A DNA stretch of 64,000 nucleotides from a virus, in IMG/VR virus record IMGVR_UViG_3300032820_000001, positions 127,134 through 191,133 of that record; one strand, given 5' to 3'. Position 1 is the stretch's first letter. Each line of letters starts with the position of its first letter. The translations under genes and the position numbers were made by a program. Below are positions 17,826 to 53,847 of this stretch, in pieces. Below the pieces are notes generated by a model. It worked only from the letters and a program-made list of their open reading frames with translations. It searched no databases and was not told the origin of the DNA.

Positions 17826-18413
17826 TTATGATTTATTGAATTGTTCTGCTAATTTTTTAACAGACCATTTAGAATTTCGTGAAAGCTTGGCATAGGTATC
17901 CAGTTCCTCTTTAAAGGTCAAAGGTCGATTTCTCACCCTAGTCATGAACTGATCTTCTTGGCCCATCTTCAAATCGCCAACCATGTGCCTATCCCCGTAG
18001 GGGGGAAAGTCGTTGGTTTCGCTCGTGCCAAAAAGGTAGGCACCTTCGGTGCCGACGGGAATAAAAAGAAAAGAATCCTGTCCGTACTCTTCAGATAAAG
18101 TAAACATCATCGTTTCGAACCCTGGATCGTCTGGGAGGTTTACGACAAAGAAACTCTCTTCTGATACCTCCATGGCTGCGGGTTTTGTAAAGTTTTCTAT
18201 ATATGAGCCCTTCACAGCCGTTACTCCATATCCTCTTTCCAGAAGGCGAGCTTTCAGAATCCGATTGGTCTCATAATTTTCTTTTGTTTCCCTGTCTCCT
18301 CGGAAACTTGTAATTATGGCCGTATCGTGTTCGAGCATGTGTGAGTATACCCTCGAAAGTGAGGACATCTCATTTAAGAATTTTTTCCAATTGTCGTGTA
18401 TTTTGTTTGTCAT
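17826..18413 (-). CDS. Phage protein, DUF3293-like, with leader MTNKIHDNWKKFLNE
   Basis: Core TAIITSFRG...N..LKARLLERGYGVTAVKGSYIE...EESFFV resembles DUF3293-type proteins. The N-terminal leader matches those at 33-37 kb. Confidence 0.55.
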   Translation of the reverse strand: MTNKIHDNWKKFLNEMSSLSRVYSHMLEHDTAIITSFRGDRETKENYETNRILKARLLERGYGVTAVKGSYIENFTKPAAMEVSEESFFVVNLPDDPGFETMMFTLSEEYGQDSFLFIPVGTEGAYLFGTSETNDFPPYGDRHMVGDLKMGQEDQFMTRVRNRPLTFKEELDTYAKLSRNSKWSVKKLAEQFNKS

Positions 18414-33024: not shown

Positions 33025-34086
33025 TCAACTCTTTTTAACGCGGATTTTGATTTCTCTGACCGCTTTCTTAATAAAAGGGGGCTCAAGATTAAATTCGGAA
33101 TTAGGTATTGCTTTAAAGATTTTAGCCAGACCCTTATCTCCCCCAATAGAGGGGTGATCTAATTGTGGCATATCAGGACGATCTGGTGCAGCACTCGAAG
33201 GTTGTGGGAGATTCCCCAGATTCGTTGCAACTTTATTTGCGATTTTATTTATAACCACCTTGGCATTCTCAGCCTCTTCGGGTGTAATATTTGCCCACTT
33301 TAAAATAACAGGATCTTTAGTTTTTCCTATCGTTGCGATCATCTCAGGATTTAAGAGATTACCAGGAGCTTTATCGTCGGTTCGTTCATCTATGTTAGCC
33401 AATATCATCTGTTTTATTTCTTCCGCGTCTTTGCCAATTATATCCGTCTTTGCGTCGCCGCCCTTTGAGGGGAATTCATCAGAAGGATTTGGATCAACAG
33501 CGGCAACTGCAAGTTGGGCAGCTGCAAGTTTTTGAGTTTCGTTGCCGGGGAAGCCCAAATTATTTACTGTAATGCTCGCCGCTGGATTAATTGCATAAGC
33601 TCCTGACCATCGGTGGTGGCCATCAAGCACATACGGAAGAGAAACGGTAATGGGGCCATGGCCGCCACTTTCGATGGCATTCTTTAAGGCTTTTGCAGAA
33701 CCAAGGGGGAAGGCCACGGATTGCATTAAATCAATAAAAGCCTGAGTGGGGTTCATATCATCCAACTTTATGGGCTTTTCTGCAGACACAGGTATTTTAT
33801 CATCCGTGGATGAGCCATCATATTTTGAGTGGGCCATTGCTAGAAATTTCCGGACTTTAGAATCTTTACCTTGAGGAGAGTTCATGAATGCTCGGACGCC
33901 GGCTGGGCCATTGTTAAAGGCTTTCTCGATGGCAACCGCTAATTCTTCTCGCCCTAAAAGTTCGATTTCATCATCCATCTTTGCTTGACTTGATCCTGGG
34001 AGACTTACCTCTTTGAGTATTTTTGTGGGTTTTCCCTCTTCTTCGAAGTGGCGCCAGTTTTCCATAATTAATTTCATGTTGCTCAT
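33025..34086 (-). CDS. ParB/Srx-like domain protein with leader MKLIMENWRHFEEE
   Basis: LDDMNPTQAFID...PITVS..YVLDGHHRW is the ParB/Srx catalytic signature. Confidence 0.7.
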   Translation of the reverse strand: MSNMKLIMENWRHFEEEGKPTKILKEVSLPGSSQAKMDDEIELLGREELAVAIEKAFNNGPAGVRAFMNSPQGKDSKVRKFLAMAHSKYDGSSTDDKIPVSAEKPIKLDDMNPTQAFIDLMQSVAFPLGSAKALKNAIESGGHGPITVSLPYVLDGHHRWSGAYAINPAASITVNNLGFPGNETQKLAAAQLAVAAVDPNPSDEFPSKGGDAKTDIIGKDAEEIKQMILANIDERTDDKAPGNLLNPEMIATIGKTKDPVILKWANITPEEAENAKVVINKIANKVATNLGNLPQPSSAAPDRPDMPQLDHPSIGGDKGLAKIFKAIPNSEFNLEPPFIKKAVREIKIRVKKS

Positions 34087-34120
34087 AATTAAGTCTCCTA
34101 AAATAAGAATCTAACAATAC

Positions 34121-34128
34121 TAAATAGC
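34121..34128 (-). promoter_or_regulatory. Candidate late-promoter motif GCTATTTA
   Basis: Lies 35 nt upstream of the ParB-like gene. Confidence 0.5.
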
Positions 34129-34153
34129 ATTCTAGCACAGTAAGTGCCTTTTT

Positions 34154-34465
34154 TTAATGATCGTGGCCACACTCATATTCTTTTTTATTTTTATCTCCCC
34201 AAAATTTGAGATATATCATCCAAAGAATGGGGACGGCAACTGGATGGAGGCACAAAAGCCAGCTTACGGGGATTAAAGCGTAAAATGCTGGGAAGTATTG
34301 TCCTAACCAATAGAATAAGGCCGGGAATAAAATATCCTCTACAATCTCCCATCCAATAAGGATGACGAGGAGAGGCATTCCATAATCCACTATAATCTTT
34401 TTAAAATTGTCTCGTTTCCAGAAAGAGAATTTATATTTCACTTTCTCCACAAATTGTTTAAGCAC
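34154..34465 (-). CDS. Hypothetical membrane protein
   Basis: 103 aa with two to three hydrophobic segments. Confidence 0.6.
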   Translation of the reverse strand: MLKQFVEKVKYKFSFWKRDNFKKIIVDYGMPLLVILIGWEIVEDILFPALFYWLGQYFPAFYALIPVSWLLCLHPVAVPILWMIYLKFWGDKNKKEYECGHDH

Positions 34466-34467
34466 TT

Positions 34468-34977
34468 TTAAATCTTTCTATCTATGATTGCTGATTCTGG
34501 CGGACTCACAAGAATTTCCGAAAAGGTCATGTAGGGATCATCACCTTCCCAATACGCTTCTGCAAAACCCCTCGCTCGATCTTCGTCGCCACGCTCAAAG
34601 GATGTGACTGCCTCAGTCCAGTATTCGGAATTTGTTCTAAATAAATTGTATTCTCCCTGAAGTCTTATCTCGTAAGTCTCACCTCCGCCACGGGCTGGAT
34701 AACTACAAAAACTGCCTCCTTCTGGGCCGTCAAGGTTCTCACACAAATAAACACAATCTAAGCGGCTGGGGCGTTCTGGAAATTGTTCTTTTCTGACTTC
34801 CTCAAAAATCTCTTCTACTCTGCCGTTCCCTTGGGAGCGAGGATTGGATCGCGGGACGTGACTGGAGCCTTGACGGATTTTGCCGTCACCACTCCAAGCT
34901 CCTGTCGTCTGCCAATAATAGGTTTGACGGGGGCCTTCGTTTAAATAACTTTTCCACTGTTCCATTAATAGTTTCAT
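34468..34977 (-). CDS. DUF2441-like (ADP-ribosyltransferase-fold) protein with leader MKLLMEQWKSYLNE
   Basis: EEIFEEVRKEQFPERPSRLDCVY...AEAYWEG...SEILV matches the DUF2441-type pattern as recalled. Confidence 0.55.
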   Translation of the reverse strand: MKLLMEQWKSYLNEGPRQTYYWQTTGAWSGDGKIRQGSSHVPRSNPRSQGNGRVEEIFEEVRKEQFPERPSRLDCVYLCENLDGPEGGSFCSYPARGGGETYEIRLQGEYNLFRTNSEYWTEAVTSFERGDEDRARGFAEAYWEGDDPYMTFSEILVSPPESAIIDRKI

Positions 34978-35357
34978 TTTAATTTCCGCGCCTTTTCGAT
35001 GGCAACATTGAGCATTTGTTTAACGAGCTGTTTGGGAAAAGTTTTAATCACATTGCCGTCTTCGGCTTCTTCATAAAAACCCTTATCCACATAATAATCC
35101 ATCGTATTTTCAAGCATTTCTGTGTAGTCATCAGTGATACGATTATCATCGTTACGCGAGACGAGCCTTTCAACCGCCGCTGGCATATTCGTGGTTAATA
35201 AATCTCTCATATCACTGTGGAGTGATTCTGAACCGATTCGCTCAAGTTCTTGGTGGTTGTCCCAATCGTCTTGTGGTAAACCAACGGGCTTAAGCCTAGA
35301 TGCTTTTTCATCGTTCTCATTTATAAATTTTTTCCACTGTTCCATTAAAAGTTTCAC
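34974..35357 (-). CDS. Hypothetical protein with leader MKLLMEQWKKFINE
   Basis: 127 aa; GTGA and ATGA overlaps with its neighbours. Confidence 0.75.
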   Translation of the reverse strand: MKLLMEQWKKFINENDEKASRLKPVGLPQDDWDNHQELERIGSESLHSDMRDLLTTNMPAAVERLVSRNDDNRITDDYTEMLENTMDYYVDKGFYEEAEDGNVIKTFPKQLVKQMLNVAIEKARKLK

Positions 35358-35986
35358 TCTGCGTCCTCCTTAACAAGTTCTTTATCAACAATTTTATATC
35401 CGTTGACAACGCCGACATTGTAATAATCAAATCCGTCCAGTAAGCAAATCTTTTGTTCCTGAAATTCTCCGGTTGCTTCTTTCGCGCAGACCTGTCCGAC
35501 GATTTCTGTAAATAGGGCGGGTGCGGCTTCTGGAGGTAATGTTTTTAAATGAACATTGTAGGCTTTTAATTCTCCGGCCAAACCGAACGGTGTTCCTGTC
35601 GAACCGAAAGCTTGAATGTGAGACATATAATCATGGATGGCTCGGAACTTTGCATTTGTAATTTCATCGAATAAAGCATGATCTGCATCGATTGTTGCAA
35701 CCTTCATTATTCCGTTCTCCTCGACATCTCGACGGATATCCGCATCGGTTTCGTAGGGGTGGTAATCAACAAATTGTACTTCGACTCTCGATTGAATTTG
35801 TTTGAACATCTTTTCGATGAATGGAACGGTGGCCTCAAAAGATGAAACAGCTCTAGGCTCAAAACTTGGTGCAGCCATGTAAGCCTTTGCAACCAAGTCA
35901 CGATACAAGTCCCAGCCATTTGGCCCAGGCTTGAGCATGAGCTTTTCGTTCAAAAATCCTCGCCAGTTTTCCATTAGGAGTTTCAT
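35354..35986 (-). CDS. Putative metal-binding protein (FRAIHDYMSH...GE motif) with leader MKLLMENWRGFLNE
   Basis: 210 aa; N..FRAIHD...H...F...GE..A...H...ALFTE..GQ pattern. Confidence 0.55.
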   Translation of the reverse strand: MKLLMENWRGFLNEKLMLKPGPNGWDLYRDLVAKAYMAAPSFEPRAVSSFEATVPFIEKMFKQIQSRVEVQFVDYHPYETDADIRRDVEENGIMKVATIDADHALFDEITNAKFRAIHDYMSHIQAFGSTGTPFGLAGELKAYNVHLKTLPPEAAPALFTEIVGQVCAKEATGEFQEQKICLLDGFDYYNVGVVNGYKIVDKELVKEDAE

Positions 35987-36501
35987 TTTACACTGTCTCC
36001 TGGATTTCCCGTAAGGTTGGCTAATGAAACATGAAATATGCGCTCTGGTTCGGGGTTGGGAGAACCGCCGATCATTTCCATTATAAGATTAACATAATCT
36101 CTCATATCTTGCTGGTTCGCAACATTTGCCACCCACGACATTCTCTGGAGATCTTCAGCCACCTTCATTTGGGGTGGTTCACTCAAATCCAGTTGAACTG
36201 GGGGTGGTTCAGGAAGCTTGTTTTCTTTGCCCATTTGTTTGAGTAATTTTTTATAAGGTTTTAAAACACTCTGGTGGGCTAGCGTCACATGAAAATTTTC
36301 AGGTGTCAGCGGTACAGGAGAGGCTGACGATCCGGGTTTCCAGGGAATTTCAACCTTCTCCGGTAATTTATTTAATGCTTCCTGTGCCTGGGAGACAATA
36401 TCTGACGAGGGCATTAATTTAAGGATGCCGCTAAACTTAACTTTGGGCTGCCCCTCTTCTTCTGTCATATATTCTCGCCAGTTTTCCATTAATAATTTCA
36501 T
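35983..36501 (-). CDS. 2H phosphoesterase (Acb1/LigT-like) with leader MKLLMENWREYMTEE
   Basis: Two HxT/HxS motifs, FHVTL and FHVSL, about 78 aa apart. Confidence 0.8.
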   Translation of the reverse strand: MKLLMENWREYMTEEEGQPKVKFSGILKLMPSSDIVSQAQEALNKLPEKVEIPWKPGSSASPVPLTPENFHVTLAHQSVLKPYKKLLKQMGKENKLPEPPPVQLDLSEPPQMKVAEDLQRMSWVANVANQQDMRDYVNLIMEMIGGSPNPEPERIFHVSLANLTGNPGDSVK

Positions 36502-37193
36502 GCCTCTAAACTCCTTAAAAAATCGACGGTGCTAGAGATATTATCTGCAGAGTGATGTATAGCTTCTCCTCCGGCTTGTTCAAATTGATCTATATATTTG
36601 GTGCGGTCATCAATTAAAATAGCTCGTCCTCCTGCGTCGATGATTCCCAGGTTCTGGAGGGCAGCGCCTTTTTCACCGGTAATAATTATATTATCGATTT
36701 CTGGAAAGTGATGAGATAACCATTCTTTCTTTCCTTCCGCCGAAGCATCATCAACTGGCGATGTCAACACATGTACATTTCCCAGACCTTGGGCCAAGTC
36801 CACCATTTCTTTCGCTCCGGGAAGGATTCCCATATCAGCCCACACTTGAGAATCGTTGGAAATAAGGGAAAACAAATAATCACTAATTCTCTTTTCCACT
36901 TTGGTTCTTTCTTGGCCTGCATCTTTTCTGGCTGTCATCTCTTCTAGTTCTTTGGGAGTTATTGGTGTAGTTCTTCCTTCTTCTTCCATCACCTTCTGGA
37001 GTCTTCTCAGTGCTTTTCGTTTGGATTTGGATTCGGCATAAAACTCATCTGGATTTTTATCTATTGTGCTGTTAATTAATTCTGCAACTTTGCCAGCGAA
37101 ATCAACTAACACACCATCCATATCAAAAAAGATATTAACGCCTTCGGTATCTTCATTCAAATACTGTCGCCAATTTTCCATTAAAAGTCTCAT
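36498..37193 (-). CDS. HAD-superfamily 5'(3')-nucleotidase-like protein (NT5C type) with leader MRLLMENWRQYLNE
   Basis: IFFDMDGVLVDF, VLTSP, GKKEWL..HF, ILIDDR...F..AGG.AIH. Confidence 0.85.
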   Translation of the reverse strand: MRLLMENWRQYLNEDTEGVNIFFDMDGVLVDFAGKVAELINSTIDKNPDEFYAESKSKRKALRRLQKVMEEEGRTTPITPKELEEMTARKDAGQERTKVEKRISDYLFSLISNDSQVWADMGILPGAKEMVDLAQGLGNVHVLTSPVDDASAEGKKEWLSHHFPEIDNIIITGEKGAALQNLGIIDAGGRAILIDDRTKYIDQFEQAGGEAIHHSADNISSTVDFLRSLEA

Positions 37194-37650: not shown

Positions 37651-40005
37651 TTATTCCAAAGCTAGTGCAAAAACTTCCTCCACCGTTTCGGGAAAGAAGA
37701 ATTCAACCTCTTCTTTGATTTTATCTGGAACATCTTTCATATCCTTCTCATTTTTTGGAGGAAGGAGTATTCTTTTGATTCCTAAGCGGTGAGCAGCAAT
37801 AACTTTCTCTTTGATTCCGCCCACAGGCAGCACCAGACCGCGCAGGCTCGTTTCTCCGGTCATTGCAGTGTCCGAGCGTACCTTCTTGTCACTTAATAGC
37901 GAAACGAGTGCTGTGCTTATTGCAATGCCTGCTGAGGGGCCGTCCTTTGGGGTTGCCCCAGCTGGGAAATGGATATGGAGATCTGTTTCTTCTAAAAAGT
38001 TCTTGTTCTCTTCTTTTGTGAGGCCAAGAGCAATTGCTTTGGATCGAATTAAACTTACTGCAGTCTTTGCAGATTCGGTCATGACGTCGCCAATCTTACC
38101 AGTTAAAGTTAAATTTCCTTTGCCGGGCATTTTGGTGGCTTCGATATATAATATATCTCCCCCGGAAGCAGTCCAAGCTAAACCAGTTGAAACACCAGGA
38201 TTTCTTGCTCTTGTATCGGGCTCAACGTCAAATTTTTCTGGACCAAGAAATGTATCAAGATTATAAGTATTTATAATTTTAATGATGTGTTGCGGCTGTT
38301 CTTTTTCTTGTTCCTTGGCAACCAATGCCGCAACATAACGGCATACTTTGGCAATTTGTCTTTCAAGCCCCCGGACTCCAGCCTCTCTGGTATATTGCAA
38401 AATAATTTTATTAAGGGCGCCCGGTTTAATGATGATATTAGTATCAGAGAGTCCATTCTTTTTTATTTGTTTTGGGACAAGATGTTTGGTTGCAATATTT
38501 TCCTTTTCTTCGTATGTATATCCAGATAATTCTATAATTTCCATTCGATCACGAAGAGGCCCAGATATTGTTCTGAGACTATTGGCTGTTGCAATAAAAA
38601 GGCAATTTGAAAGATCAATTGGAATATCAAGGTAGTGATCCATAAATTCATTGTTCTGCTCTGGATCAAGAACCTCTAGCATCGCTGATGCTGGATCTCC
38701 TTTATAATCTTTGCTCATCTTATCAATCTCATCGAGTAAAAAGAGTGGGTTGTTGACGCCAATATTTATCATCGACTTTACTATTTTTCCTGGCATGGCG
38801 CCGATATAAGTTTTTCGATGGCCTCTAATTTCTGATTCATCGCCGACGCCGCCGAGAGAAACTCTTTTCATTTTGCGACCTAAAGCTTGGGCAATTGATT
38901 TTCCTAGCGAAGTTTTGCCAACTCCAGGTGGCCCAACCAAACAAAGGATTGGCCCTTTCATATCGTCCTTTAATTTACGGACAGCAAGATATTCAATAAT
39001 TCTATCCTTAACGTCGTCAAGGCCATGGTGGTCATCGTCAAGTTGTTTTTTCACATCTGTCAATTTTAGACTATCGCGGGTATAAACATCCCAGGGAAAA
39101 TCTAAAATAGTTTCAAGATAATTTAGAGAAACATTATATTCCGCCTGATTTGGCTGCATATTACGCATCCTCTTAATTTCTTTCGTGGCTGTCTTAACAA
39201 CCTCATCAGGTAAATCAATGTTTTTCATCTTTTCCTTGAAAACATTTAACTCATCATTTTCTTCGGCGCCTTCGCCAAGCTCTTGATTAATTGCTCTGAG
39301 TTGTTGGCGCAAATAATATTCTCTTTGATTCCTTGAAATTTCTTCTTTAACTGATGTATTAATTTTATCTGAGAGGACGAGCATTTCGTGCTTTCTTCCT
39401 AAAATTTCCATGGCCTTTATAACTCTTTGGCTTACATCATATGTTTCCAGTACTGCTTGTCTTTCCTCAACCGCTTCACCTAAGTTTCCTGCTACCACGT
39501 CGGCCAAGACCCCAGGATCTTCGATGGTATCAATAAAGTTCTTGACGCTTGAAGGAATTTCAGGGAGAGCAGAAATAATATCGAAAGAAGTTTCTCTTAA
39601 AGTTTGAAATAGTAATTGAAGTTCACTTGAATTCGATGAAGGTGGAATTTCAGGATATTCTACTGCTGCAGTAAAGAACGGTTCTGAGGTATTCATTTCA
39701 CTATATTCAATTCTTCTTATTCCCTCGATAATTACATTATAATTACCATCGGAGGTTTTAGAAAATTTTATAATTTTCGCTAACGTTCCAACTTTATATA
39801 AATCTAAATCAATTGGTTCTTCAACCTCTACGTCTTTTTGAGCCACGACGCCAAATTCAGTTCCCGTCTTGATAACTGCATTGATTAATTTTAAAGATTT
39901 CTCTCGACCAATTAAAAGAGGCATAACTGTGCCAGGAAAGAACACTGCATTTTTTAAAGGCAGGATAGGTATTAAATTGTCTTTTCCTTTATTTATTCCA
40001 AACAA
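37651..40005 (-). CDS. lon: ATP-dependent Lon protease (full-length LonA type)
   Basis: N-domain LPLKNAVFFPG, Walker A GPPGVGKTS, LLDEIDK, GPLRDRME, catalytic Ser in KDGPSAG and Lys in VGGIKEK. Confidence 0.96.
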   Translation of the reverse strand: MFGINKGKDNLIPILPLKNAVFFPGTVMPLLIGREKSLKLINAVIKTGTEFGVVAQKDVEVEEPIDLDLYKVGTLAKIIKFSKTSDGNYNVIIEGIRRIEYSEMNTSEPFFTAAVEYPEIPPSSNSSELQLLFQTLRETSFDIISALPEIPSSVKNFIDTIEDPGVLADVVAGNLGEAVEERQAVLETYDVSQRVIKAMEILGRKHEMLVLSDKINTSVKEEISRNQREYYLRQQLRAINQELGEGAEENDELNVFKEKMKNIDLPDEVVKTATKEIKRMRNMQPNQAEYNVSLNYLETILDFPWDVYTRDSLKLTDVKKQLDDDHHGLDDVKDRIIEYLAVRKLKDDMKGPILCLVGPPGVGKTSLGKSIAQALGRKMKRVSLGGVGDESEIRGHRKTYIGAMPGKIVKSMINIGVNNPLFLLDEIDKMSKDYKGDPASAMLEVLDPEQNNEFMDHYLDIPIDLSNCLFIATANSLRTISGPLRDRMEIIELSGYTYEEKENIATKHLVPKQIKKNGLSDTNIIIKPGALNKIILQYTREAGVRGLERQIAKVCRYVAALVAKEQEKEQPQHIIKIINTYNLDTFLGPEKFDVEPDTRARNPGVSTGLAWTASGGDILYIEATKMPGKGNLTLTGKIGDVMTESAKTAVSLIRSKAIALGLTKEENKNFLEETDLHIHFPAGATPKDGPSAGIAISTALVSLLSDKKVRSDTAMTGETSLRGLVLPVGGIKEKVIAAHRLGIKRILLPPKNEKDMKDVPDKIKEEVEFFFPETVEEVFALALE

Positions 40006-45033: not shown

Positions 45034-45462
45034 TTACTCCTTTTTATTTTCCATGAGATCTGGGTTTGAGAAATTATCAACCTCAAAACCAGGGGGCCAT
45101 TCGCCCTCCATCCCTTTAAAAACTACCGCAAAATCATCGTTGGCCCATCCGGGATATTGATCGCGAAGGCTATTATCTTCGCCTACAGCTAGATCCGCAA
45201 AGGCACCGCGAGAAAGATTCCATATCTCCCCGTCGTGGTCTTCACTGCGAAGGAAGGCAACTACCGTTTCCGGAGTTTCTTTGGTTCGACCTTCTTCTTC
45301 CCACCCTCTCGTCCCCGGAGAACCGACTTTATCTGCGTGACGTGCAGAGGTGTAAGGACCTTCCTCTAGGGAATAATTTTCATACTTTTTCGTATCAACA
45401 CCCTGATTCTCAAATAATTTTTTAAAAAGCTTGCTGCTTCGTTCGTTTAGTAAATTTTTCAT
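45034..45462 (-). CDS. Hypothetical protein with leader MKNLLNERSSKLFKKLFENQG
   Basis: 142 aa; ATGA overlap with the upstream gene. Confidence 0.7.
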   Translation of the reverse strand: MKNLLNERSSKLFKKLFENQGVDTKKYENYSLEEGPYTSARHADKVGSPGTRGWEEEGRTKETPETVVAFLRSEDHDGEIWNLSRGAFADLAVGEDNSLRDQYPGWANDDFAVVFKGMEGEWPPGFEVDNFSNPDLMENKKE

Positions 45463-45986
45463 GATGAATCACGATCTCCCTTGCTGTAATGTGCGGAATG
45501 GTTGCCTGCAGGCCCTAACCACTCTTCTCGGTCGTTATTTCTTATTGGAATTGCTCCGTCGTCGCCAGGATCGGCTCGATGTTTGTCAATTCCTTGATTA
45601 TTGTTCTTTCTGCCATCGCACCAGTCTCTAAGTAGCATGTTTCCCTCTAAATACGCCTGTTTTTCCATTTCTCGAAGGTGTTTATCGTCTTGAGCGTATC
45701 CTTCGGACGTAGGCGCAGCACCCCCGAAATTGCCTTGACAATTCTGGTTATGGTGAACCAACTCATGCGAAAAGCTCCTTAAAACGTCTTTTGGGTGCCT
45801 TCCGGTTGAATATAAGTGGATTTCCATACCTTGAGGGTCGTAATATGCTGTTTTTCCAAGGGGATCTGCGTAATTTTCCTTATTTTCGCGCAAAAACACC
45901 TTGCAGGACTCATTAAAGCCCAATTGCTTCTTTGCATAGGGGTAAAACTCCCTTATAAGCTCGTGAATGGTGTTTTTGTTATGCAT
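45459..45986 (-). CDS. Zincin-like metallopeptidase (HExxH)
   Basis: DVLRSFSHELVHHNQ...EKQAY. Confidence 0.7.
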   Translation of the reverse strand: MHNKNTIHELIREFYPYAKKQLGFNESCKVFLRENKENYADPLGKTAYYDPQGMEIHLYSTGRHPKDVLRSFSHELVHHNQNCQGNFGGAAPTSEGYAQDDKHLREMEKQAYLEGNMLLRDWCDGRKNNNQGIDKHRADPGDDGAIPIRNNDREEWLGPAGNHSAHYSKGDRDSS

Positions 45987-47159: not shown

Positions 47160-50100
47160 TCATCCTCCCGGTGGTGCGGATTTGCCCAATTTGGTTGAAG
47201 CAATCTTCATTCCCTTGGTCAAATATTTATTGCCGCCTTTAATATTTAGTTTCAAAGCTCGCTTTTGCCACTTTTTGGCTTTCTTTTGATAAGGTTCGAT
47301 CTCATTCACAATCTCGTCAGCAACGATTTCTGTCAAGCCATCATCGCCAGTGCCGTAAAACCCGCCAGGGCCTCTATCTTGGTTTTCCTTCGGAAACTTA
47401 TCAGGATATTTCTCAATGTATTTCTGCACAGCCATCGTCAAGGAGGCTTGCGCGGCTTTCTTATTCTGAGAAACTACTTTCATTCCCGCGACAAACAAAT
47501 CGTTCCAAGCAGTGAGCGTTGATAGTGTCATATCAAGCGTCGCCAAGATATATTCGCTTGCAGGTTCGAACTTGTTTAGATACTGATGGTTTTGCATCGC
47601 AAATATTAATCCCTCTACAGCCTGCGGCGCACTCTCTTCGGCAGGAGTGTCCGTTCCGGGGAGTCCTTGCTGTATGGCTTCTCCCTTCCCGACAATTCTC
47701 TCTAAGGCTTTCATACCAATTCTAAACATGAAGTCTTTATTATCAGATAACTCAGATGAAAGAAATCCATATGGTACGTCTTTTGCATTGTCGGGCTTCA
47801 AAAAAGAAATTTGAAATCGTATAGTTCTGTCTTCCGGAAAAATGCTTACGCCCAATCCTTCGAATTGTTCTTCAAAGCCATCGTGCGCGTTCTGGTCATC
47901 TACCAGTTTATCATACTTGGTTCCTTCGAGCATTTCATGTTTAATAAGTATTCCACGAATTTTATCTTTAATATCTTTATAGTTGTCATCAACAGTGTGC
48001 CTCACATCTTGAAGAAAGCGATCTGTAGCATTGATAACCTCGTTTTCATCACCTTCATCATAACTGCTAAGACTTTTGAATCCTGTTATAATAACTTGGA
48101 CAGTTGTATGCCCAGTTCTAATATCAATATTATCTTCGTGGGCGTCATCCTGAATATTTTCGGAATTGTCGCCCGCTGTAAGTCCACCAGATTCGTTGGT
48201 AAACGACTCGTCGATTTCCTCATACCCAAGTATATCTAATTCGTCAGCGAATTCTTTATCCGCTGGGCGATCAAAAAGAAATTCTACTCGAAAGCTTGGA
48301 GTTACATAAAGCCCACCTTCGTCGATGTCATAGCCTCCATCAACGGTGGCATCTATAGTTAATTCTCGATGATCAATGTGTTCTCTTTGTTCATCGAGTA
48401 CCCTTGAAACTTCCTCCTCCCAATCCTTATGTTCATAATCCCAAACTTTGGGATACTTCTCTTCATAATCATGATCGGCCATGGCACTTCTTAAAACACT
48501 GTGAAGCTCTTCCCACTTTTCTCTATCAACTTGGCTATCATTGACATCCATAAACTGATGAGAACCATAATGGAATTGCCACTTCTCTCCGGTTCCCTTG
48601 TCTTCAATGTAAAACAGTGGGTCATCTTCTTTATAATATTGTTCAAAGTAATTTAATCCGGGCGCTGCAGTACACCAATCGGTGCCTTTGCCAAGAGTGC
48701 AGGCTGCACCTTTGTTATTGATAACGGCAACTCTCCACTCTTCGTCGTCACGCAGAACGTCCGTTCCTGCCTCTGCGTTCTTGGAGAGCTCTTTGGCATC
48801 CGCCGCTTCGATGCGAGGTTTTGCATCCTTGACAACTTTGTTCAAGGCGCCAATGCTAATAACTGCATCAAGGCCCTTGGGCTCCATGTGTGTGTTGTGC
48901 TGAAAAAACTTCTCCAGATTATTGCGAAGGGTACCATAAGATTCATTACCAATAATACTTCCTACGGGATTAACGAAATCTTCGCGGCGCTGCAGGCTTT
49001 TTTTGATTTGTCGTAGAAGCCACAAAGATGCTTGTGCCTTTTGGCCATCCTCGATATCGCGGGGCATAAAATGTAAAACCTTTCCACGGAATGCGCGCAG
49101 CATACCATCTAAATCTTTGGTAGGTTCATTGCCATGATCATAATTCCAACCCTTGATGAGCTTCGTTCCCTGCTTCTCGACAGAGGCTCTTGCATCAGCA
49201 TATGAAATTTCTTGTAGTGGTTCTTGTACTTCCGTGATGGGGCCGATAATTAAATCCGGATTTATGGGATCACGAAATAGCGTATCTGAGACATGGTTTT
49301 CCCGCATCGATTTAATTTGTTCGTCAAGAAGTTTATGAAATGCTTTCTTAAAGAGTTCAATATTATTGTTGACGACTGTGAAGTTTTGAAAGAAGATTTT
49401 AGTTCGCGCTATTTCCTCTGCGGTTCCTGCGGAGGAGGGCTTGAATACTAACCCCCAATATCGCGGCCTTGGCAAGCCCATTGGGATTGGTTCTTTATTG
49501 ACATTTATTTTGCCACTGTCGACTTCCACCGTTCCATTACTAATATCTAATTTAGAATCTGTAGGGAGGTAGGCTTGCATGTCAGGCATATACATTGGAG
49601 TTTCTTCGTTTTCTATCCCAAGTTCTAATGACGTTTGTCTTTCTGTAACTTCTCGCACAACTTCCATTGCCTGCGTAATCAGCCTTTTGCCGATCTCTGG
49701 GGACTCTAGCCATTCTACGCCAGCCTCACTCAAATCATAACCTGAGCGCGGGAGATCTTGATAGGACAAAAAGATATTTGCAAACTCCATATCGGCATGC
49801 ATGAATACATTAAAATTATCAAATTTCTTTTCTAGTGCCTTACCGTCGTCAGCTTCGAATTCTTCATCCACATCATTCTTTTTTATGACGCCCCACTCTA
49901 GCAGTTTCTTTCGCATGGTTCCGCCGATGGTTTCGTAGTTGCCATCGATTGTGCGATCAACATCGCGGAAGAAATCTAGTGATTCCTCTGTGGCTTGATG
50001 TTCGTCGTTCAACATGTCGTCACTTATATAAATCGTTCTGTGAAAGGAAAAATCTATTGAAAAATTATCACCCTCACCTAACGTGTCAACATTGTCCGAT

Positions 50101-53100
50101 GCATCAGGCCCGTATGCTATGTTCTCTCCCTCGTCCTCGCAATCTTCGTTGCCGGGACAAAAATACCCGCCGTTTGCGTCAGTAAAAAGTTCAGCAAGCT
50201 CCGCCATAATCCTATACTCTCCGTCTATTTGTTCTTGAGACCATTTCTTGTGTGGGGGTTCCCATGGATCAGTTCGGTTCGCAGGGACGGCTTTAGGCAG
50301 ATTAAGACTAGCTAGTGGATCTCCAGTTCCCCCATTGCGGTCAAAGGTAAATTTTGTTGTGCAATAAAGATGAACTCTGCTATCTTCATAATCTTCTTCA
50401 TAATCAAAACTAATATCAACATTTTCGGGGTGAGACTGTTTCTCTTTAATTTCTTTAAGTTCAGCTGTTAGGATAGCATTAACATCGACGAACTCAAAGT
50501 CAAAAACTAACTCCTCAAACCTTTCTTTCTGCCCAGCACTTTCAAGGGCATCTTTTAATCGGTCATGAAGTTCTTCAAATTTGTCTTTGCTGGGCTTTAC
50601 ATCGTCAACATCCATAAATTCTTTTTTCCCATAAGAGAACTGGTATCTTTCGTCGTCGGGAGTATGAATATAAAATAATGGATCGTCTCTGCCACCGTAG
50701 TATTGTTTAAAATAATCTAGTCCGGGAGAAGCTGTACACCAGTTTGTTTTCTTTCCGAGAAGGCAAGCTGCGCCTTTGTTGTGGGCACCAGCAATCACCC
50801 AACCATCGTCGCCCTGATTAAAGAGTGGCAGTCCGCTGTCAGGATCTCGCATAACACTTCCATCGTCGTCATAGTGAAAGTCTCCCGTAAAGAACTCGGT
50901 TCCTTGTGGGGCATCTTTGGATAACTTTTTATCTTTGTCTGCTTCAATCGATTTTTCCGCTTGAGTCACTACGTCGTTCAACATTTCCGGGCTCGCAATT
51001 TTATCGAGCTGGTTAATTTTCATGTGTCGCTTATGCTGAAAGAAAGTTTCAAGGCCCCGCGAGATCGTGGTTCGAAGACCCCACGGAAACTGCGTACTTT
51101 GCGGCGCACCAACATCGGCGCCACCCCATGCATGGATTATCCCGTCCCTTACGTCTGGGCTTGTGCGGAACATGCGACTGAGCCAAAGAGTTGCCGCTCC
51201 CTTTTGACCATCTTCGATATCGTCGGGAACCAGACTGTGCAATGTGTTCTTAACAACTCTCATGGCAGCCTTCAGTCCACGCTCAGGATCGCCTTCGGGG
51301 TCTCTTTGGAAATTATAATTTTTAATGACGTTGCGATTCTTTTTGCCGTCGAGGGTTTTCAATGCGTCCTCATAACTAACCTCTTTCAGAATCATTTTTC
51401 TATAAAGTTTTTCTTCCAAGGACATTGGGGCTTTGTCTTCTTCGAAGAGTGACATAATATCTTCGATGCCTTTCTCTATTTCCACCTTTTCTTCTTCGGC
51501 CGAAGGACGTGGATTGTTCTCCATCCAGTCTTTGGCTAATTCCTTAATTTCTTTTCGGTATTGTTTTTGGAGGGGCTCTCCCCATGCTCCAGCTTTACTG
51601 GGAGAAAGTTTGCTCCACTTGGGGTTAATGGAGGCATCTAAGTTTCGCATATCCTGCCAACCATGTTTCATCGCCAGCTTCTTAACTTTATTATCATCCT
51701 TATATTCCTCATACCACGCATTGGTATATTGATAGCCACCGGCCTGTTCGATAATAAAATAAACGAGTGAAGGGTCGCCACCGGGGTGGGGCTCCTCCCC
51801 TATTTTGACATCACCAATTTGTTTTTTAACAAGCTTACCACCATTAATGTCGGCATATGCCATTCCCAGGTGTTCGGTTCTTTGTGAGAGAAGGGAGCGA
51901 TCTAAGTGTTCATTAACATATTGAGCAAAGCTCTCTCGGCGTCCTCTGTCAGCGCCGCTGAAAATATCGTCGCCTGTTACAGACTGGTAGTTTCCAATTT
52001 CTTTTGGCATGGGAACCTTGACGTAACTCATCCAATCAAATCGAAACTTCACTTCATCCCCAACAAAGTGGGGGCCAGAGGTTTCGTCAATACTTGGATC
52101 AACGTTTGCCATCGGGCCTTCTTCTTTTAGATACTCCCAATATTTTACTAGCTCGTTGCCGGGATTGGGGTTAGCGTTAAGATCATCATGGATGGAAACC
52201 ATCATCTTCTCCATGGTATCTTCGACGTCCTTTCTCTTTATTCCCCAGGTGGGAAACATTTCTCTCTTTACTTTTCCTAGACTCAAATCATTATTCTGGG
52301 CATCCCACACACTATTGAGTACTCCGTCGCTATCCAATACAACAGCAAGTTTATCATATCGAGTTCGTTCTTGCGGCTTTCCTTTTTTACTAGGAGCTTT
52401 CTTTTTCTTCTTTCCCATCCATGGCACCAGCTTGTGATAATTATTAACGACATCGGCAATTCTTTGGGTGGCCCCATAAAGGGGTCTATTTTTTATGCCA
52501 CCCTCTTCGTTATAGTAGAAGTCACGATCATCACTCACAATCTGGTCGAGTTGTTTAACCATCCATGGAAGATATTTTTTATTCTCAGTTGGATCCCACC
52601 ATGCCAGCTTATCGATTCCTCTGGCACCGCGATGCTCGTTGTCGGTATAGCTTCCCCGCTCTACATCCAGATGAGGATATTTCTTTTTTAAGTCCTCCAC
52701 TTTTCCTTCAAAAAGATCGTCGAGCAACTCGTCAGTAATATCGTATGTTTCGACATCTTTCGCGGGCAGCTCTGGTGGTGGTATAACCTTTTTCGGGAGA
52801 ACATAATAAAGAGTCATCCCGTCGTCATTATAATAACGCCTGAACCAATTTTCTTTAGGGTCTGCTGCTGTCGTACACCATGTCGACCCAGCACCGTATA
52901 GGCAGGATGCCTTGGTGGAAACGGGAACGACAATTTTAAAGTAGGGGCCATCATAGGCCGTTCGGTAATCTTGGCCGGGGATAACATTCTTGGTAGCCTT
53001 CTTAAATGCTGATGCCTCCCTATCGGCTGCAGCTGCTTTTACGGCGGCTTCCATTTGATCAAACGTTAAACTTGCGTGGTCTTTATAATTAATCTCTTTT

Positions 53101-53807
53101 TCTTCCCCGACAAGTCGCTCGTAGATTTTATCTTCCATCTTTCGCTGGTATCCCTCAACAGGAACCAAGTCCTCTGGACGCACAAGCAATTCCTTCTCAT
53201 CATAAGCGTTGCTCCAAACGTGAGGAATCGAAACAAGAACATCTTTTAAATTTATATAATAAGCGTCAACGTCGGTGTGGTCATGTTTGTGATGGGTATA
53301 TTCTTTTTTACCTTTGCAAAATCTATACGCATACTTCTCACTCCACGTTACAGAAGTGATAGGCTGATCGCTGTCATCCATTTCTTTGGTTGAGCCACAT
53401 CGCCAAACTTTAATCACTGCACCAGAACCGTCAGGGCTTTGGGTTACGATGCCGTCTTTCGTCAATCCACGTCGAGATAATTCTCCAAGCTCTTCTCTGG
53501 ACTTGTAGATTTCGTCCATAGAAATTCCCTTGTCGGCAATCCTACGCTTCTCCATCTCTTTCTCAATCCATTCTTCTTTGTCTTCTTCATAGCTGTCACC
53601 CTCTTCCCACTCACGGTACTCCGGTTCGGGAAGAAGAAAAGACATATCGTATTGAGGGTCGCTCTCTGACCACAAACCAGAAATAGACTCAGTGTCGCAA
53701 CATGCATCACTGGCCATCATCATCTGAGTCAAGCGGCTTAGTTGGCCACCAACGTCGAGGCGTTCATTCGTAAGTTTTTTGTAGATTAAATTTTCGAGGT
53801 TTTTCAT
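47160..53807 (-). CDS. 2215-aa modular (polyvalent-like) protein: ART-like domain plus three WCT-motif (PcfJ-like) repeat modules
   Basis: ART-like motifs VWRC...TSVTWS...DEKELLV at about 53170-53420. Three copies of C.[YL]G..[ST].WCT[AT]...[WY]F..YY...L[YF]Y at about 52890, 50750 and 48690. Modules starting at about 51425 and about 49240 are clear paralogues. Confidence 0.65.
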   Translation of the reverse strand: MKNLENLIYKKLTNERLDVGGQLSRLTQMMMASDACCDTESISGLWSESDPQYDMSFLLPEPEYREWEEGDSYEEDKEEWIEKEMEKRRIADKGISMDEIYKSREELGELSRRGLTKDGIVTQSPDGSGAVIKVWRCGSTKEMDDSDQPITSVTWSEKYAYRFCKGKKEYTHHKHDHTDVDAYYINLKDVLVSIPHVWSNAYDEKELLVRPEDLVPVEGYQRKMEDKIYERLVGEEKEINYKDHASLTFDQMEAAVKAAAADREASAFKKATKNVIPGQDYRTAYDGPYFKIVVPVSTKASCLYGAGSTWCTTAADPKENWFRRYYNDDGMTLYYVLPKKVIPPPELPAKDVETYDITDELLDDLFEGKVEDLKKKYPHLDVERGSYTDNEHRGARGIDKLAWWDPTENKKYLPWMVKQLDQIVSDDRDFYYNEEGGIKNRPLYGATQRIADVVNNYHKLVPWMGKKKKKAPSKKGKPQERTRYDKLAVVLDSDGVLNSVWDAQNNDLSLGKVKREMFPTWGIKRKDVEDTMEKMMVSIHDDLNANPNPGNELVKYWEYLKEEGPMANVDPSIDETSGPHFVGDEVKFRFDWMSYVKVPMPKEIGNYQSVTGDDIFSGADRGRRESFAQYVNEHLDRSLLSQRTEHLGMAYADINGGKLVKKQIGDVKIGEEPHPGGDPSLVYFIIEQAGGYQYTNAWYEEYKDDNKVKKLAMKHGWQDMRNLDASINPKWSKLSPSKAGAWGEPLQKQYRKEIKELAKDWMENNPRPSAEEEKVEIEKGIEDIMSLFEEDKAPMSLEEKLYRKMILKEVSYEDALKTLDGKKNRNVIKNYNFQRDPEGDPERGLKAAMRVVKNTLHSLVPDDIEDGQKGAATLWLSRMFRTSPDVRDGIIHAWGGADVGAPQSTQFPWGLRTTISRGLETFFQHKRHMKINQLDKIASPEMLNDVVTQAEKSIEADKDKKLSKDAPQGTEFFTGDFHYDDDGSVMRDPDSGLPLFNQGDDGWVIAGAHNKGAACLLGKKTNWCTASPGLDYFKQYYGGRDDPLFYIHTPDDERYQFSYGKKEFMDVDDVKPSKDKFEELHDRLKDALESAGQKERFEELVFDFEFVDVNAILTAELKEIKEKQSHPENVDISFDYEEDYEDSRVHLYCTTKFTFDRNGGTGDPLASLNLPKAVPANRTDPWEPPHKKWSQEQIDGEYRIMAELAELFTDANGGYFCPGNEDCEDEGENIAYGPDASDNVDTLGEGDNFSIDFSFHRTIYISDDMLNDEHQATEESLDFFRDVDRTIDGNYETIGGTMRKKLLEWGVIKKNDVDEEFEADDGKALEKKFDNFNVFMHADMEFANIFLSYQDLPRSGYDLSEAGVEWLESPEIGKRLITQAMEVVREVTERQTSLELGIENEETPMYMPDMQAYLPTDSKLDISNGTVEVDSGKINVNKEPIPMGLPRPRYWGLVFKPSSAGTAEEIARTKIFFQNFTVVNNNIELFKKAFHKLLDEQIKSMRENHVSDTLFRDPINPDLIIGPITEVQEPLQEISYADARASVEKQGTKLIKGWNYDHGNEPTKDLDGMLRAFRGKVLHFMPRDIEDGQKAQASLWLLRQIKKSLQRREDFVNPVGSIIGNESYGTLRNNLEKFFQHNTHMEPKGLDAVISIGALNKVVKDAKPRIEAADAKELSKNAEAGTDVLRDDEEWRVAVINNKGAACTLGKGTDWCTAAPGLNYFEQYYKEDDPLFYIEDKGTGEKWQFHYGSHQFMDVNDSQVDREKWEELHSVLRSAMADHDYEEKYPKVWDYEHKDWEEEVSRVLDEQREHIDHRELTIDATVDGGYDIDEGGLYVTPSFRVEFLFDRPADKEFADELDILGYEEIDESFTNESGGLTAGDNSENIQDDAHEDNIDIRTGHTTVQVIITGFKSLSSYDEGDENEVINATDRFLQDVRHTVDDNYKDIKDKIRGILIKHEMLEGTKYDKLVDDQNAHDGFEEQFEGLGVSIFPEDRTIRFQISFLKPDNAKDVPYGFLSSELSDNKDFMFRIGMKALERIVGKGEAIQQGLPGTDTPAEESAPQAVEGLIFAMQNHQYLNKFEPASEYILATLDMTLSTLTAWNDLFVAGMKVVSQNKKAAQASLTMAVQKYIEKYPDKFPKENQDRGPGGFYGTGDDGLTEIVADEIVNEIEPYQKKAKKWQKRALKLNIKGGNKYLTKGMKIASTKLGKSAPPGG

Positions 53808-53847
53808 ACTGGCCCATTATAACATAAAAAACATAAGTTTTACACTA

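Follow-up and report, generated by a model that had tools for sequence, protein, structure and literature searches.

The window analysed here is a 64,000-nucleotide stretch of the 191-kb genome of an uncultured marine phage with head genes of the T4 type. Its most conspicuous feature is a single open reading frame whose product (P0001) has a predicted mass of 253 kDa, and the parts of this protein are listed in Table 1 together with tagged small genes from elsewhere in the window. No Pfam family was matched at E ≤ 1 by the 2215-aa protein, nor by P0002, P0014 or P0015, and no cultured phage carried a protein matching it. It does match PHROGs 28193 and 17056, neither of which has an assigned function.

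Table 1. Features of the 2215-aa open reading frame and tagged small genes in the window
Feature	Position in window	Strand	Remarks
Whole ORF	47160..53807	-	2215 aa, 253 kDa; predicted poly-cargo precursor
N-terminal leader	53763..53807	-	aa 1-15, MKNLENLIYKKLTNE
Module 1	53118..53762	-	aa 16-230; helical N-terminal part, then putative ART-like fold
Junction 1/2	53088..53144	-	aa 222-240; leader relic RKMEDKIYERLVGEEKEIN, conserved I-Y-E(230)
Module 2	51426..53087	-	aa 241-794; WCT core aa 245-363, then ~430 aa without assigned function
Junction 2/3	51381..51425	-	aa 795-809; MSLEEKLYRKMILKE; predicted cut after L-K-E(809)
Module 3	49272..51380	-	aa 810-1512; full WCT module
Junction 3/4	49209..49271	-	aa 1513-1533; LIIGPITE/VQEPLQE/; two conserved [LI]-x-E sites
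Module 4	47328..49208	-	aa 1534-2160; second full WCT module
C-terminal tail	47163..47327	-	aa 2161-2215; after L-T-E(2160)
Six ENWR-leader small genes, array	33025..37193	-	outside the 2215-aa ORF; apparently same tagging system
NT5C/HAD, ENWR-tagged	36498-37193	-	Pfam
DUF2441, ENWR-tagged	34468-34977	-	Pfam
S-adenosylmethionine lyase family protein	17826..18413	-	leader MTNKIHDNWKKFLNE; PF23780, E 1.6e-11

An earlier note on this DNA had reported that a leader-like motif recurs inside the protein and that WCT tripeptides mark its modules, and all of these were found where it had placed them: MKNLENLIYKKLTNE at aa 1 (window position 53807), MEDKIYERLVGEE at aa 224 (53138), MSLEEKLYRKMILKE at aa 795 (51425) and ITEVQEPLQE at aa 1524 (49238), with WCT at aa 310, 1023 and 1711. 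When ORFs of at least 80 aa from the whole 191-kb genome, in six frames, were scanned with a deliberately loose regular expression, the leader-like motif was matched at aa 1, 224 and 795 of this protein only, so its recurrence is not a matter of chance. The paralogy of modules 3 and 4 was likewise borne out by an end-to-end alignment (aa 795-1523 against aa 1524-2215) at 31% identity, with E = 7e-42 for the WCT core, as was the third WCT domain proposed for module 2, where aa 245-363 match aa 1648-1761 of module 4 at E = 1e-9 and an HMM makes the same link at 2e-10. Since the module copies differ at synonymous sites, the conservation lies at the level of the protein.

The WCT module represents a large undescribed family of 2444 clusters with an invariant core signature, N-K-G-A-A-C...W-C-T. 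A full module consists of a helical bundle, an alpha/beta core holding the signature and an acidic C-terminal half, and hundreds of stand-alone WCT proteins begin with the leader. The AlphaFold2 (AF2) model of module 4 (m31bc3c0a2f8e; pLDDT 83) found no match among solved structures. In a Foldseek search of BFVD, viral models labelled 'PcfJ-like' matched the WCT fold weakly (E 5e-4 to 1e-2, TM-score 0.22-0.32), and neither P0001 nor 62 family members gave a Pfam hit, the PcfJ-like family (PF14284) included, so any relationship is remote at best. Behind the last WCT module, the tail ends in 45 strongly basic aa; homologues with about 30% identity in the rest of the protein are 80-90% conserved over this stretch.

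Module 1 has no sequence match in Pfam or the PDB. Its AF2 model (pLDDT 69, built from 5 sequences) weakly suggests that about aa 120-223 may adopt an ADP-ribosyltransferase-like (ART-like) fold: nearly all of the top 50 rows of the VIA-wide comparison were ADP-ribosyltransferase-fold chains, though with low Z values (3.6-5.2), the highest-scoring row (Z 6.7) was a protein of unknown function, and the Foldseek matches had E values of 0.16-1. This part carries R136 (in WRCG), S152 (in TSVTWS) and E204-K-E206, a Glu-x-Glu pair, all invariant across 5 homologues. In R-S-E ADP-ribosyltransferases (Alt/VIP2, cholera-toxin-like) the catalytic residues run Arg, Ser-x-Ser/Thr, Glu-x-Glu, with an Arg-to-Ser spacing of roughly 40 aa, and the 16 aa found in module 1 are shorter than this.

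Comparison with relatives gives good support to the view that the 2215-aa protein is a chain of modules kept separate elsewhere, with leaders of their own. In syntenic orthologues of 1300-1370 aa, the leader begins at a position that aligns with the internal motif at aa 224; the N-terminus of the 1300-aa genes (MKNLEELIYNKLSEK) aligns with junction 1/2 without gaps, and module 2 is collinear with P0004-13. The same syntenic locus holds P0019, a stand-alone gene of 679 aa that starts with a leader and is 37% identical to module 3 (E 4e-89), and versions of 2580-2611 aa with one further module, and this range of sizes at one locus points to accretion there. In the tree, modules 3 and 4 do not pair as sisters: stand-alone genes that carry a leader separate them, and module 3 groups with stand-alone genes. 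Fusions in relatives bear an extra module or a GNAT domain, and the leader of P0001 adjoins a 365-aa deletion relative to P0002 and P0003. Module 1, which also stands behind a GNAT domain in P0165-7, was seen only within other fusions, and no leader-tagged stand-alone gene for it was found. Of the earlier proposal, the fusion of leader-tagged genes is well supported.

The joints between the modules share a short motif. Directly before the WCT domain, [LI]-x-E is present in 101 of 111 domain copies, at 75/83 N-terminal and 26/28 internal domain starts; L or I occupies the first position in 103, the middle residue varies (N, L, T, Q, K, V), and E occupies the last in 101 and is invariant in alignment A2. 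As a sequence pattern, this is the cleavage rule of T4 gp21; structural constraints may account for part of the conservation of L and E. Nine [LI]-x-E sites are conserved in the three full-length orthologues P0001, P0002 and P0003, and five of them lie at module boundaries, an enrichment with some circularity, since the motif was already in view when the boundaries were drawn. The canonical internal sites are 809, 1526, 1533 and 2160, joined by 230 as I-Y-E.

Four cut sites had been proposed before this analysis, and they divide evenly: ILKE-809 and PLQE-1533 fit L-x-E and are conserved, whereas LTNE-15 and VGEE-236 do not fit. The N-terminal site reads L-T-N-E here; in P0002-P0014 the same leader has a canonical ending (LTE, LKE or L[SAIT]E), reached at residue 14-15. 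Junction 1/2 has L-V-G in place of the L-x-E of stand-alone orthologues, and only I-Y-E at aa 230 fits, lying within the second motif and conserved in P0001, P0002 and P0003. The site at junction 2/3 appears as LNE in P0003, LLE in P0004-14 and LQE in L017 and L025, with variable flanks. At junction 3/4, sites 1526 and 1533 are conserved in P0001, P0002 and P0003, and the N-terminal part of the leader has decayed.

Related leaders occur beyond the large gene. Seven unrelated small genes in the window start with an MKLLMENWRxYLNE-type (ENWR) leader ending in L-x-E, and many other viral contigs have runs of 3-6 genes headed by leaders of the ENWR type. The IY-type leader of the 2215-aa protein was not found in other genes of the 191-kb genome; stand-alone orthologues, P0019 among them, have the ENWR tag at the same position and in the same 14-aa frame, and the link between the two leaders is drawn from this. 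The IY motif also occurs at the very C-terminus of some proteins (P0165-7), a placement for which a pure N-terminal targeting signal does not account.

The genome encodes a gp21-type prohead protease (Peptidase_S77, PF03420; E 6e-34, 113.9 bits, above the cut-off) and a Gp23 capsid protein (PF07068; E 2e-58). The capsid protein carries L-R-E/A at the position where T4 gp23 is cut. In a set of 17 large viral records with WCT genes, S77 and L-x-E go hand in hand: S77 occurs in 12, a count that stands without a matched control for S77 frequency in large marine phages, and in a complete 395-kb record that lacks S77 the WCT gene lacks L-x-E. Additionally, phage PA5oct, which has S77, encodes a distant homologue, EST35_0205. 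An HMM (E 3e-10) and Foldseek (E 4e-8) recover the WCT core in this protein, which mass spectrometry places in the virion (annotation 'structural protein, ESI-MS/MS'); unlike the protein studied here, it has a single module and a different N-terminus. The distance of about 75 kb between the 2215-aa gene and the head-gene cluster counts against a role as capsid cargo.

The reading favoured here, with a probability of about 55%, is that the ORF encodes a precursor of several capsid-cargo (ejection) proteins that enters the prohead and is cut by the gp21-type protease. On sequence evidence, capsid loading followed by division into several proteins is probable, and cleavage by the head protease at the joints is plausible. 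The chain would run from a 15-aa leader through the ART-like module and three WCT modules to a short conserved basic tail, and the locus would have grown by fusion of genes that remain separate in relatives, each with its leader. By analogy with Alt and the internal proteins of T4, the precursor would be brought by its N-terminal leader into the prohead scaffolding core, where the protease would cut after [LI]-x-E, removing the leader and parting the modules. Cuts would fall at about aa 230, 809, 1526/1533 and 2160, those at E809/V810 and E1533/I1534 exposing the new N-termini VSYEDA and ISYADA, and pieces of about 25, 67, 82 and 71 kDa would be expected along with a 6-kDa tail. These pieces would accompany the DNA out of the capsid and take effect early in infection. 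What the analysis establishes is the module architecture, the existence of stand-alone forms, the conserved motif, and the protease gene with its co-occurrence; targeting, cleavage, injection and all biochemical activities of the modules are what we infer from these patterns.

The fused protein might instead stay intact, in the virion or outside it, with the motifs and L-x-E persisting as linkers or as uncut relics of fusion. This is unlikely but carries real weight, since the virion RNA polymerase of N4 is a large protein packaged unprocessed (PMC5512222), about 80% of SPN3US head proteins are uncleaved (PMC10052503), and both junction 1/2 and the N-terminal site are non-canonical in the 2215-aa ORF. 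Relics, however, should decay, and [LI]-x-E persists at nearly all internal domain starts (the 26 of 28 given above) in homologues sharing about 30% identity, whereas P2 and the residues further upstream are variable; junction 3/4 kept two sites despite losing the rest of the leader. It is improbable that L-x-E and the following V/I-S-F/Y merely form the structural start of the WCT domain, behind a helix serving folding, oligomerisation or membrane association and unrelated to the prohead protease. The motif does abut a highly conserved domain start, and a fold without a solved relative leaves room for structural roles. Against this, the same L-x-E leader heads unrelated domains (SAM lyase, HAD enzyme, DUF2441), and in the AF2 model the motif residues form low-confidence coil (mean pLDDT 63 at junction 3/4), with the first helix beginning 3 residues past the Glu. 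One WCT subfamily has L-K-T-A or F-S instead of L-x-E, so the fold does not require the Glu.

Distinctly improbable, too, is a leader acting as a degron or regulatory tag for the phage Lon protease, which would time the removal of early effectors rather than target the capsid. A full-length Lon gene (37651-40005) adjoins the tagged array and is syntenic in close relatives, and the leader is hydrophobic and aromatic, as Lon degrons typically are. Yet Lon occurs in only 2 of the 17 large records bearing WCT or the leader, against the 12 with S77, and in two complete or near-complete genomes (G005 and G007) S77 occurs alongside the leader or domain without Lon, a host Lon being a possible substitute; moreover, Lon is not known to require an exact L-x-E. 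Internal translation starts at the ATGs of aa 224 and 795 could yield nested leader-tagged products without proteolysis, as both internal motifs start with Met and the former ATG is preceded by a weak GAGG at a distance of 14-17 nt. This is highly improbable: that spacing is poor, aa 795 lacks a Shine-Dalgarno sequence, junction 3/4 has no Met, and Met 795 is replaced by Leu in P0003.

The proposed cargo precursor resembles several known systems. T4 gp21 cuts after Glu, and Alt is trimmed at both ends, at ITE-6 and LTE-619 (PMC5694885), while the T4 internal proteins have only a capsid-targeting sequence in common (PMC3012670). Like T4 with its IPI-III and Alt, the source phage encodes a T4-type prohead protease and capsid protein, appears to place a short N-terminal L/I-x-E tag on otherwise unrelated proteins and has enzyme- or effector-looking candidate cargo, including the putative ART-like module, a parallel with Alt. 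It differs in linking several putative cargo units into a single 253-kDa precursor, whose packaging and cleavage are predictions and whose joints bear tag relics and cut motifs, in a tag of 14-15 aa unrelated in sequence to that of T4, and in a WCT family not known from T4. The gp21-related proteases of phiKZ-like giant phages (phiKZ, 201phi2-1, SPN3US) also cut many head-internal proteins, among them the ejection (E) proteins, after Glu at an x-E motif; these substrates include paralogue families and sometimes have several cut sites per protein (PMC10052503, PMC5694885). In contrast, A/S/G is favoured at P3 by those proteases, which for the most part take off long N-terminal propeptides destined for degradation, and release of several functional modules from one chain is not reported there.

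The polyvalent proteins of phages and conjugative elements (Iyer et al. 2017, PMC5512222) likewise combine several effector-type domains in very large polypeptides of mosaic, freely recombining architecture that are predicted to accompany the DNA. The ORF holds at least two effector-type domains in one polypeptide (the putative ART-like module and three WCT modules), and a Pfam search of P0001, P0002, P0014 and P0015 found no domain of the polyvalent class (MuF, zincin-like MPTase, DarB-type). Unlike polyvalent proteins, no built-in peptidase was found in the ORF, and processing would fall to the head protease at the L-x-E joints. A further parallel lies in the anti-restriction Dar proteins of P1 (DarB, DdrB), very large head-packaged proteins that protect or prepare infection, DarB being about 250 kDa. 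DdrB is proteolytically processed before packaging (PMC5512222). P1 is not T4-like, however, no sequence or domain similarity to the ORF was found, and loading there needs DarA/Hdf instead of a shared N-terminal tag.

More broadly, and tentatively, at rather less than even odds, the portable 14-aa L-x-E tag may constitute a general cargo loading-and-release system in a large clade of uncultured marine T4-like phages, in which any enzyme could be loaded (SAM lyase, nucleotidase, ART, WCT), head-to-tail fusions would be resolved in the capsid by the head protease, and WCT, with more than 2000 clusters, would be the commonest payload. If so, phages would have an analogue of the polyprotein strategy seen in eukaryotic RNA viruses. 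Cutting at the joints would account for many giant ORFs without an assigned function in environmental T4-like phages, and the tag with L-x-E would then provide a sequence rule for predicting capsid cargo from genomes alone. The finding draws attention to the very large uncharacterised WCT family and points to the SAM lyase, the ART-like module and the nucleotidase as candidate counter-defence enzymes. If the joints are cut, one late gene would supply the host with several pre-made proteins at DNA entry, before phage expression, in a system that would evolve by gene fusion and fission at a conserved tag.

The window forms the final 64 kb of a complete 191,133-bp IMG/VR record bearing direct terminal repeats, and its polyprotein (P0001) is divided here into four modules (aa 16-230, 241-794, 810-1512 and 1534-2160) and a tail. 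The earlier note had described a recurring leader-like motif and a modular layout in this protein, and sequence analysis of the ORF confirms both at the very positions it reported, with motif copies at aa 1, 224 and 795 and ITEVQEPLQE at aa 1524. A loose regular expression, run in six frames over the entire genome, matched only at these three motif positions. Segment-wise BLAST and pairwise alignment demonstrated full-length paralogy between aa 795-1523 and aa 1524-2215 (31% identity, core E 7e-42), while a third copy of the core, termed WCT after its W-C-T tripeptide, lies at aa 245-363; the kinship of modules 3 and 4 and the third WCT domain of module 2, both proposed earlier, are thus borne out. 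No other gene of the genome carries a WCT domain. The whole protein, its parts and the homologues P0002, P0014 and P0015 matched no Pfam family, and PHROGs matches were confined to families of unknown function. Neither megablast of 20 kb nor tblastn of the whole protein gave a match among cultured phages (50,697 records), and PA5oct-like phages were reached only by a stand-alone homologue, P0032.

Features of the polyprotein region, in window coordinates or in residues (aa) of the polyprotein
Feature	Position	Strand	Remark
Polyprotein ORF	47160-53807	minus	single ORF, 2215 aa
Neighbouring ORF, at least 2853 aa	55414-63975	minus	PHROG 19691 'virion structural protein', E 4e-34; DUF6727 weakly; extends to record end
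Lon protease, full-length (substrate-binding, AAA+ and S16 domains)	37651-40005	minus	directly adjoins tagged array
Tagged gene	17826-18413		SAM-lyase family
Tagged gene	33025-34086		
Tagged gene	34468-34977		DUF2441
Tagged gene	34974-35357		
Tagged gene	35354-35986		
Tagged gene	35983-36501		
Tagged gene	36498-37193		NT5C/HAD nucleotidase
Conserved site I-Y-E	aa 230		inside junction 1/2 motif
Conserved site L-K-E	aa 809		module boundary
Conserved sites I-T-E and L-Q-E	aa 1526, aa 1533		module boundary
Conserved site L-T-E	aa 2160		precedes tail

A word-indexed search recovered homologues of the ORF in three size classes, namely the largest, P0002 (2580 aa, 84% identity) and P0003 (2611 aa, 47%), a middle class of 1298-1370 aa, and a single gene of 679 aa, P0019; the relatives come from marine metagenomes, one Tara sample name among them. 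The ORF and its ~1300-aa relatives share a gene order of giant protein, small genes, ORF homologue, about six small genes, an 890-aa gene, a 119-aa gene and Lon. These ~1300-aa proteins begin with MKNLEELIYNKL[SAIT]EK, and since their residue 2 aligns with ORF residue 222, the motif at aa 224 is homologous to a real N-terminus. P0019, whose locus is syntenic in two contigs, begins with its own leader, MNLIHENWRRYLEEDLLQE/VTY, and resembles module 3 (37% identity, E 4e-89), with which it shares an insertion absent from module 4. P0002 and P0003 contain an extra 365-aa module between leader and module 1, cleanly lost from the ORF, and module 1 is also found behind a GNAT acetyltransferase in P0165-7, where the IY motif (the tag type of the ORF itself) occurs on both flanks and also forms the protein end. 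The relatives display accretion at one locus, and the stand-alone, leader-tagged modules that the earlier note had suggested seeking among them leave its claim well supported, that the ORF arose by fusion of separately encoded, leader-tagged modules.

Within the extra module of P0002 and P0003 (aa 15-385, without a counterpart in the window), DLEI...IEVK resembles a PD-(D/E)xK nuclease by eye only; the module had no Pfam match, and no tool backed the resemblance. The marine phage contig L009:3-3870 encodes a distinct polyprotein that pairs two paralogous modules and has an internal IQQRIYNKIAEK joint; it also carries a GNAT plus module-1 protein ending in ...ERIYNKILKGL, so the IY motif can occupy the C-terminus too.

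Several other explanations were considered and rejected. DNA-level repeats would have supplied the motif as copied nucleotides, and codon comparison revealed that the copies differ at synonymous positions; it is therefore the peptide, not the DNA, that is conserved. That module 4 arose from module 3 by a recent tandem duplication is contradicted by a maximum-likelihood tree of the domain, in which module-4 copies form one clade and module-3 copies a separate one, grouped with stand-alone genes and single-module orthologues (support 95/98), so that stand-alone genes stand between them. Internal translation starts were dismissed as there is no convincing Shine-Dalgarno sequence. No such sequence occurs ahead of the ORF either (window 53808-53840); its ATG is preceded, at a distance of about 10 nt, by a TATAAT box, gene 45459-45986 is similarly arranged, and the arrangement may reflect an element resembling a late promoter, with a very short leader.

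A profile built from modules 3 and 4 matched 2444 representative clusters at E<=0.001, 114 of them at E<=1e-30. Most matches are proteins of 300-700 aa with a leader, typically MKLLFENWRKYLLNE, ahead of a domain start 13-22 residues into the chain, and proteins with two, three or five copies exist as well. Among metagenomic chains, P0105 (1844 aa, with additional WG_beta_rep repeats) holds five cores and P0144 (1591 aa) and P0015 (1420 aa) three each; multi-copy WCT proteins therefore arose repeatedly. When 111 domain starts were aligned to the profile without selection on the motif, P3 was L or I in 103 and P1 was Glu in 101, P1' being V or I and P2 variable (N 36, L 15, T 13, Q 8, K 7, V 7). 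This [LI]-x-E rule is obeyed by 75 of the 83 N-terminal copies and by 26 of the 28 internal ones. In alignment A2 (62 sequences), the Glu is invariant. In a small subfamily, L-K-T-A or F-S replaces L-x-E, and the Glu is therefore not required by the fold. To judge by its residues, L/I-x-E before the WCT domain is the pattern of T4 gp21; that enzyme cleaves after Glu, with ITE-6 and LTE-619 as cut sites in Alt (PMC5694885).

The ORF contains 25 [LI]-x-E sites, nine of which are conserved across P0001, P0002 and P0003 (aa 61, 109, 230, 367, 809, 1206, 1526, 1533 and 2160). Five of these nine lie at the four boundaries, an enrichment that is partly circular because the boundaries were drawn with the motif in view. 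At junction 3/4, the N-terminal half of the leader is gone and two sites are kept, as expected if the first leader alone targets the protein and every joint is cut. The N-terminal joint and junction 1/2 are the least certain, since the first site of the ORF reads L-T-N-E, and L-V-G stands at junction 1/2 in place of the L-x-E of the orthologues. Cuts at 15, 230, 809, 1533 and 2160 would release pieces with computed masses of 25, 67, 82, 71 and 6 kDa.

The same genome encodes a Gp23-type major capsid protein and a T4-like baseplate wedge protein, together with a prohead protease of the Peptidase_S77 (T4 gp21-type) family (genome C1:97049-97678, minus strand; E 6e-34). The capsid protein carries ...ELLRE/ASSMAAGD at the position where T4 gp23 is cut at L-T-E/A. 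S77 was detected in 12 of 17 WCT-bearing viral records above 100 kb, a raw count lacking a matched S77 frequency for large marine phages and therefore taken as supporting evidence only. The five records without S77 are mostly incomplete, the exception being a 395-kb record rated complete, whose WCT protein has no L-x-E. S77 is likewise present in PA5oct, whose WCT homologue is distant. The IMG/VR records L053 (395 kb) and L061 (236 kb), with a WCT gene lacking L-x-E and no S77, constitute a natural contrast group for the cleavage hypothesis. Alternatively, the tag could serve the phage-encoded Lon protease, whose gene stands next to the tagged array in the window and is syntenic in close relatives; this explanation is weakened, however, as Lon is encoded by only two of the 17 large WCT-bearing records and is missing from most other tag-bearing phages.

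Tags of the same kind, MKLLMENWRGFLNE and variants, begin seven further small genes of the window; the general form is MKLLMENWRxYLNE, with a final L-x-E. Their bodies are unrelated, comprising the families listed in the table and others without a family, much as the capsid-targeting sequence is the sole feature shared by T4 internal proteins (PMC3012670). The ORF tag, MKNLE.LIY.KL.E, has the length and fixed positions (M1, K2, L4, E6, L12, E14) of this ENWR tag and occupies the place of the ENWR form in stand-alone orthologues. At 57 IMG/VR loci with a WCT gene, the neighbours are often tagged too, forming arrays of three to six. A full-text literature search with ENWR-type leader strings returned no relevant paper.

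The AF2 model of the first 337 residues of module 4 (pLDDT 83) comprises a helical bundle and, after it, a small alpha/beta domain holding the invariant N, C, W-C and P, with the ten leader residues as low-confidence coil. Foldseek found nothing in the PDB at E<=0.001, nor did a sequence profile search of the PDB, and a VIA-wide structure search was not informative (best Z 5.8, designed helical repeats and scattered alpha/beta folds). Among predicted viral structures, the model matched several uncharacterised phage proteins, PcfJ-like proteins weakly, and the PA5oct structural protein (E 4e-8); the PA5oct gene EST35_0205, annotated as a structural protein detected by ESI-MS/MS, matches the WCT profile at E 3e-10. 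The module 1 model is weaker (pLDDT 69, five sequences). VIA-wide neighbours of its C-terminal 100 residues are almost all of ADP-ribosyltransferase fold, at Z of only 3.6-5.2, the top row being a protein of unknown function (Z 6.7); Foldseek gave E 0.16-1, and only the GNAT part of the fused relatives drew matches in a sequence search of the PDB. With Arg136, Ser152 and Glu204-x-Glu206 invariant, an Alt-like ADP-ribosyltransferase is a reasonable but unproven assignment for the modelled module. The basic tail, the last 45 aa (window 47163-47297), reads IEPYQKKAKKWQKRALKL.IKGGNKYLTKGMKIASTKLGKSAPPGG; it is 80-90% conserved among homologues ~30% identical elsewhere, which points to a fixed binding partner. 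The same tail ends the shorter proteins P0018, P0120 and P0131.

Capsid loading and head-protease cutting of the ORF product is the explanation best supported by the comparative evidence, with a probability of roughly 55%. As proposed, the product would be handled like T4 internal proteins and Alt, and like phiKZ-like phage ejection proteins (PMC5694885, PMC10052503). In architecture it resembles the polyvalent proteins described by Iyer et al. (PMC5512222), although neither their characteristic domains nor any built-in peptidase was found in the ORF. For the seven small tagged proteins, capsid cargo is the likely role, and they are candidates for counter-defence enzymes. Both the tag and the WCT family have apparently been undescribed so far, and the novelty seems to lie in the combination, in which one precursor links cargo units in a chain and each joint keeps relics of the targeting tag and the head-protease motif.
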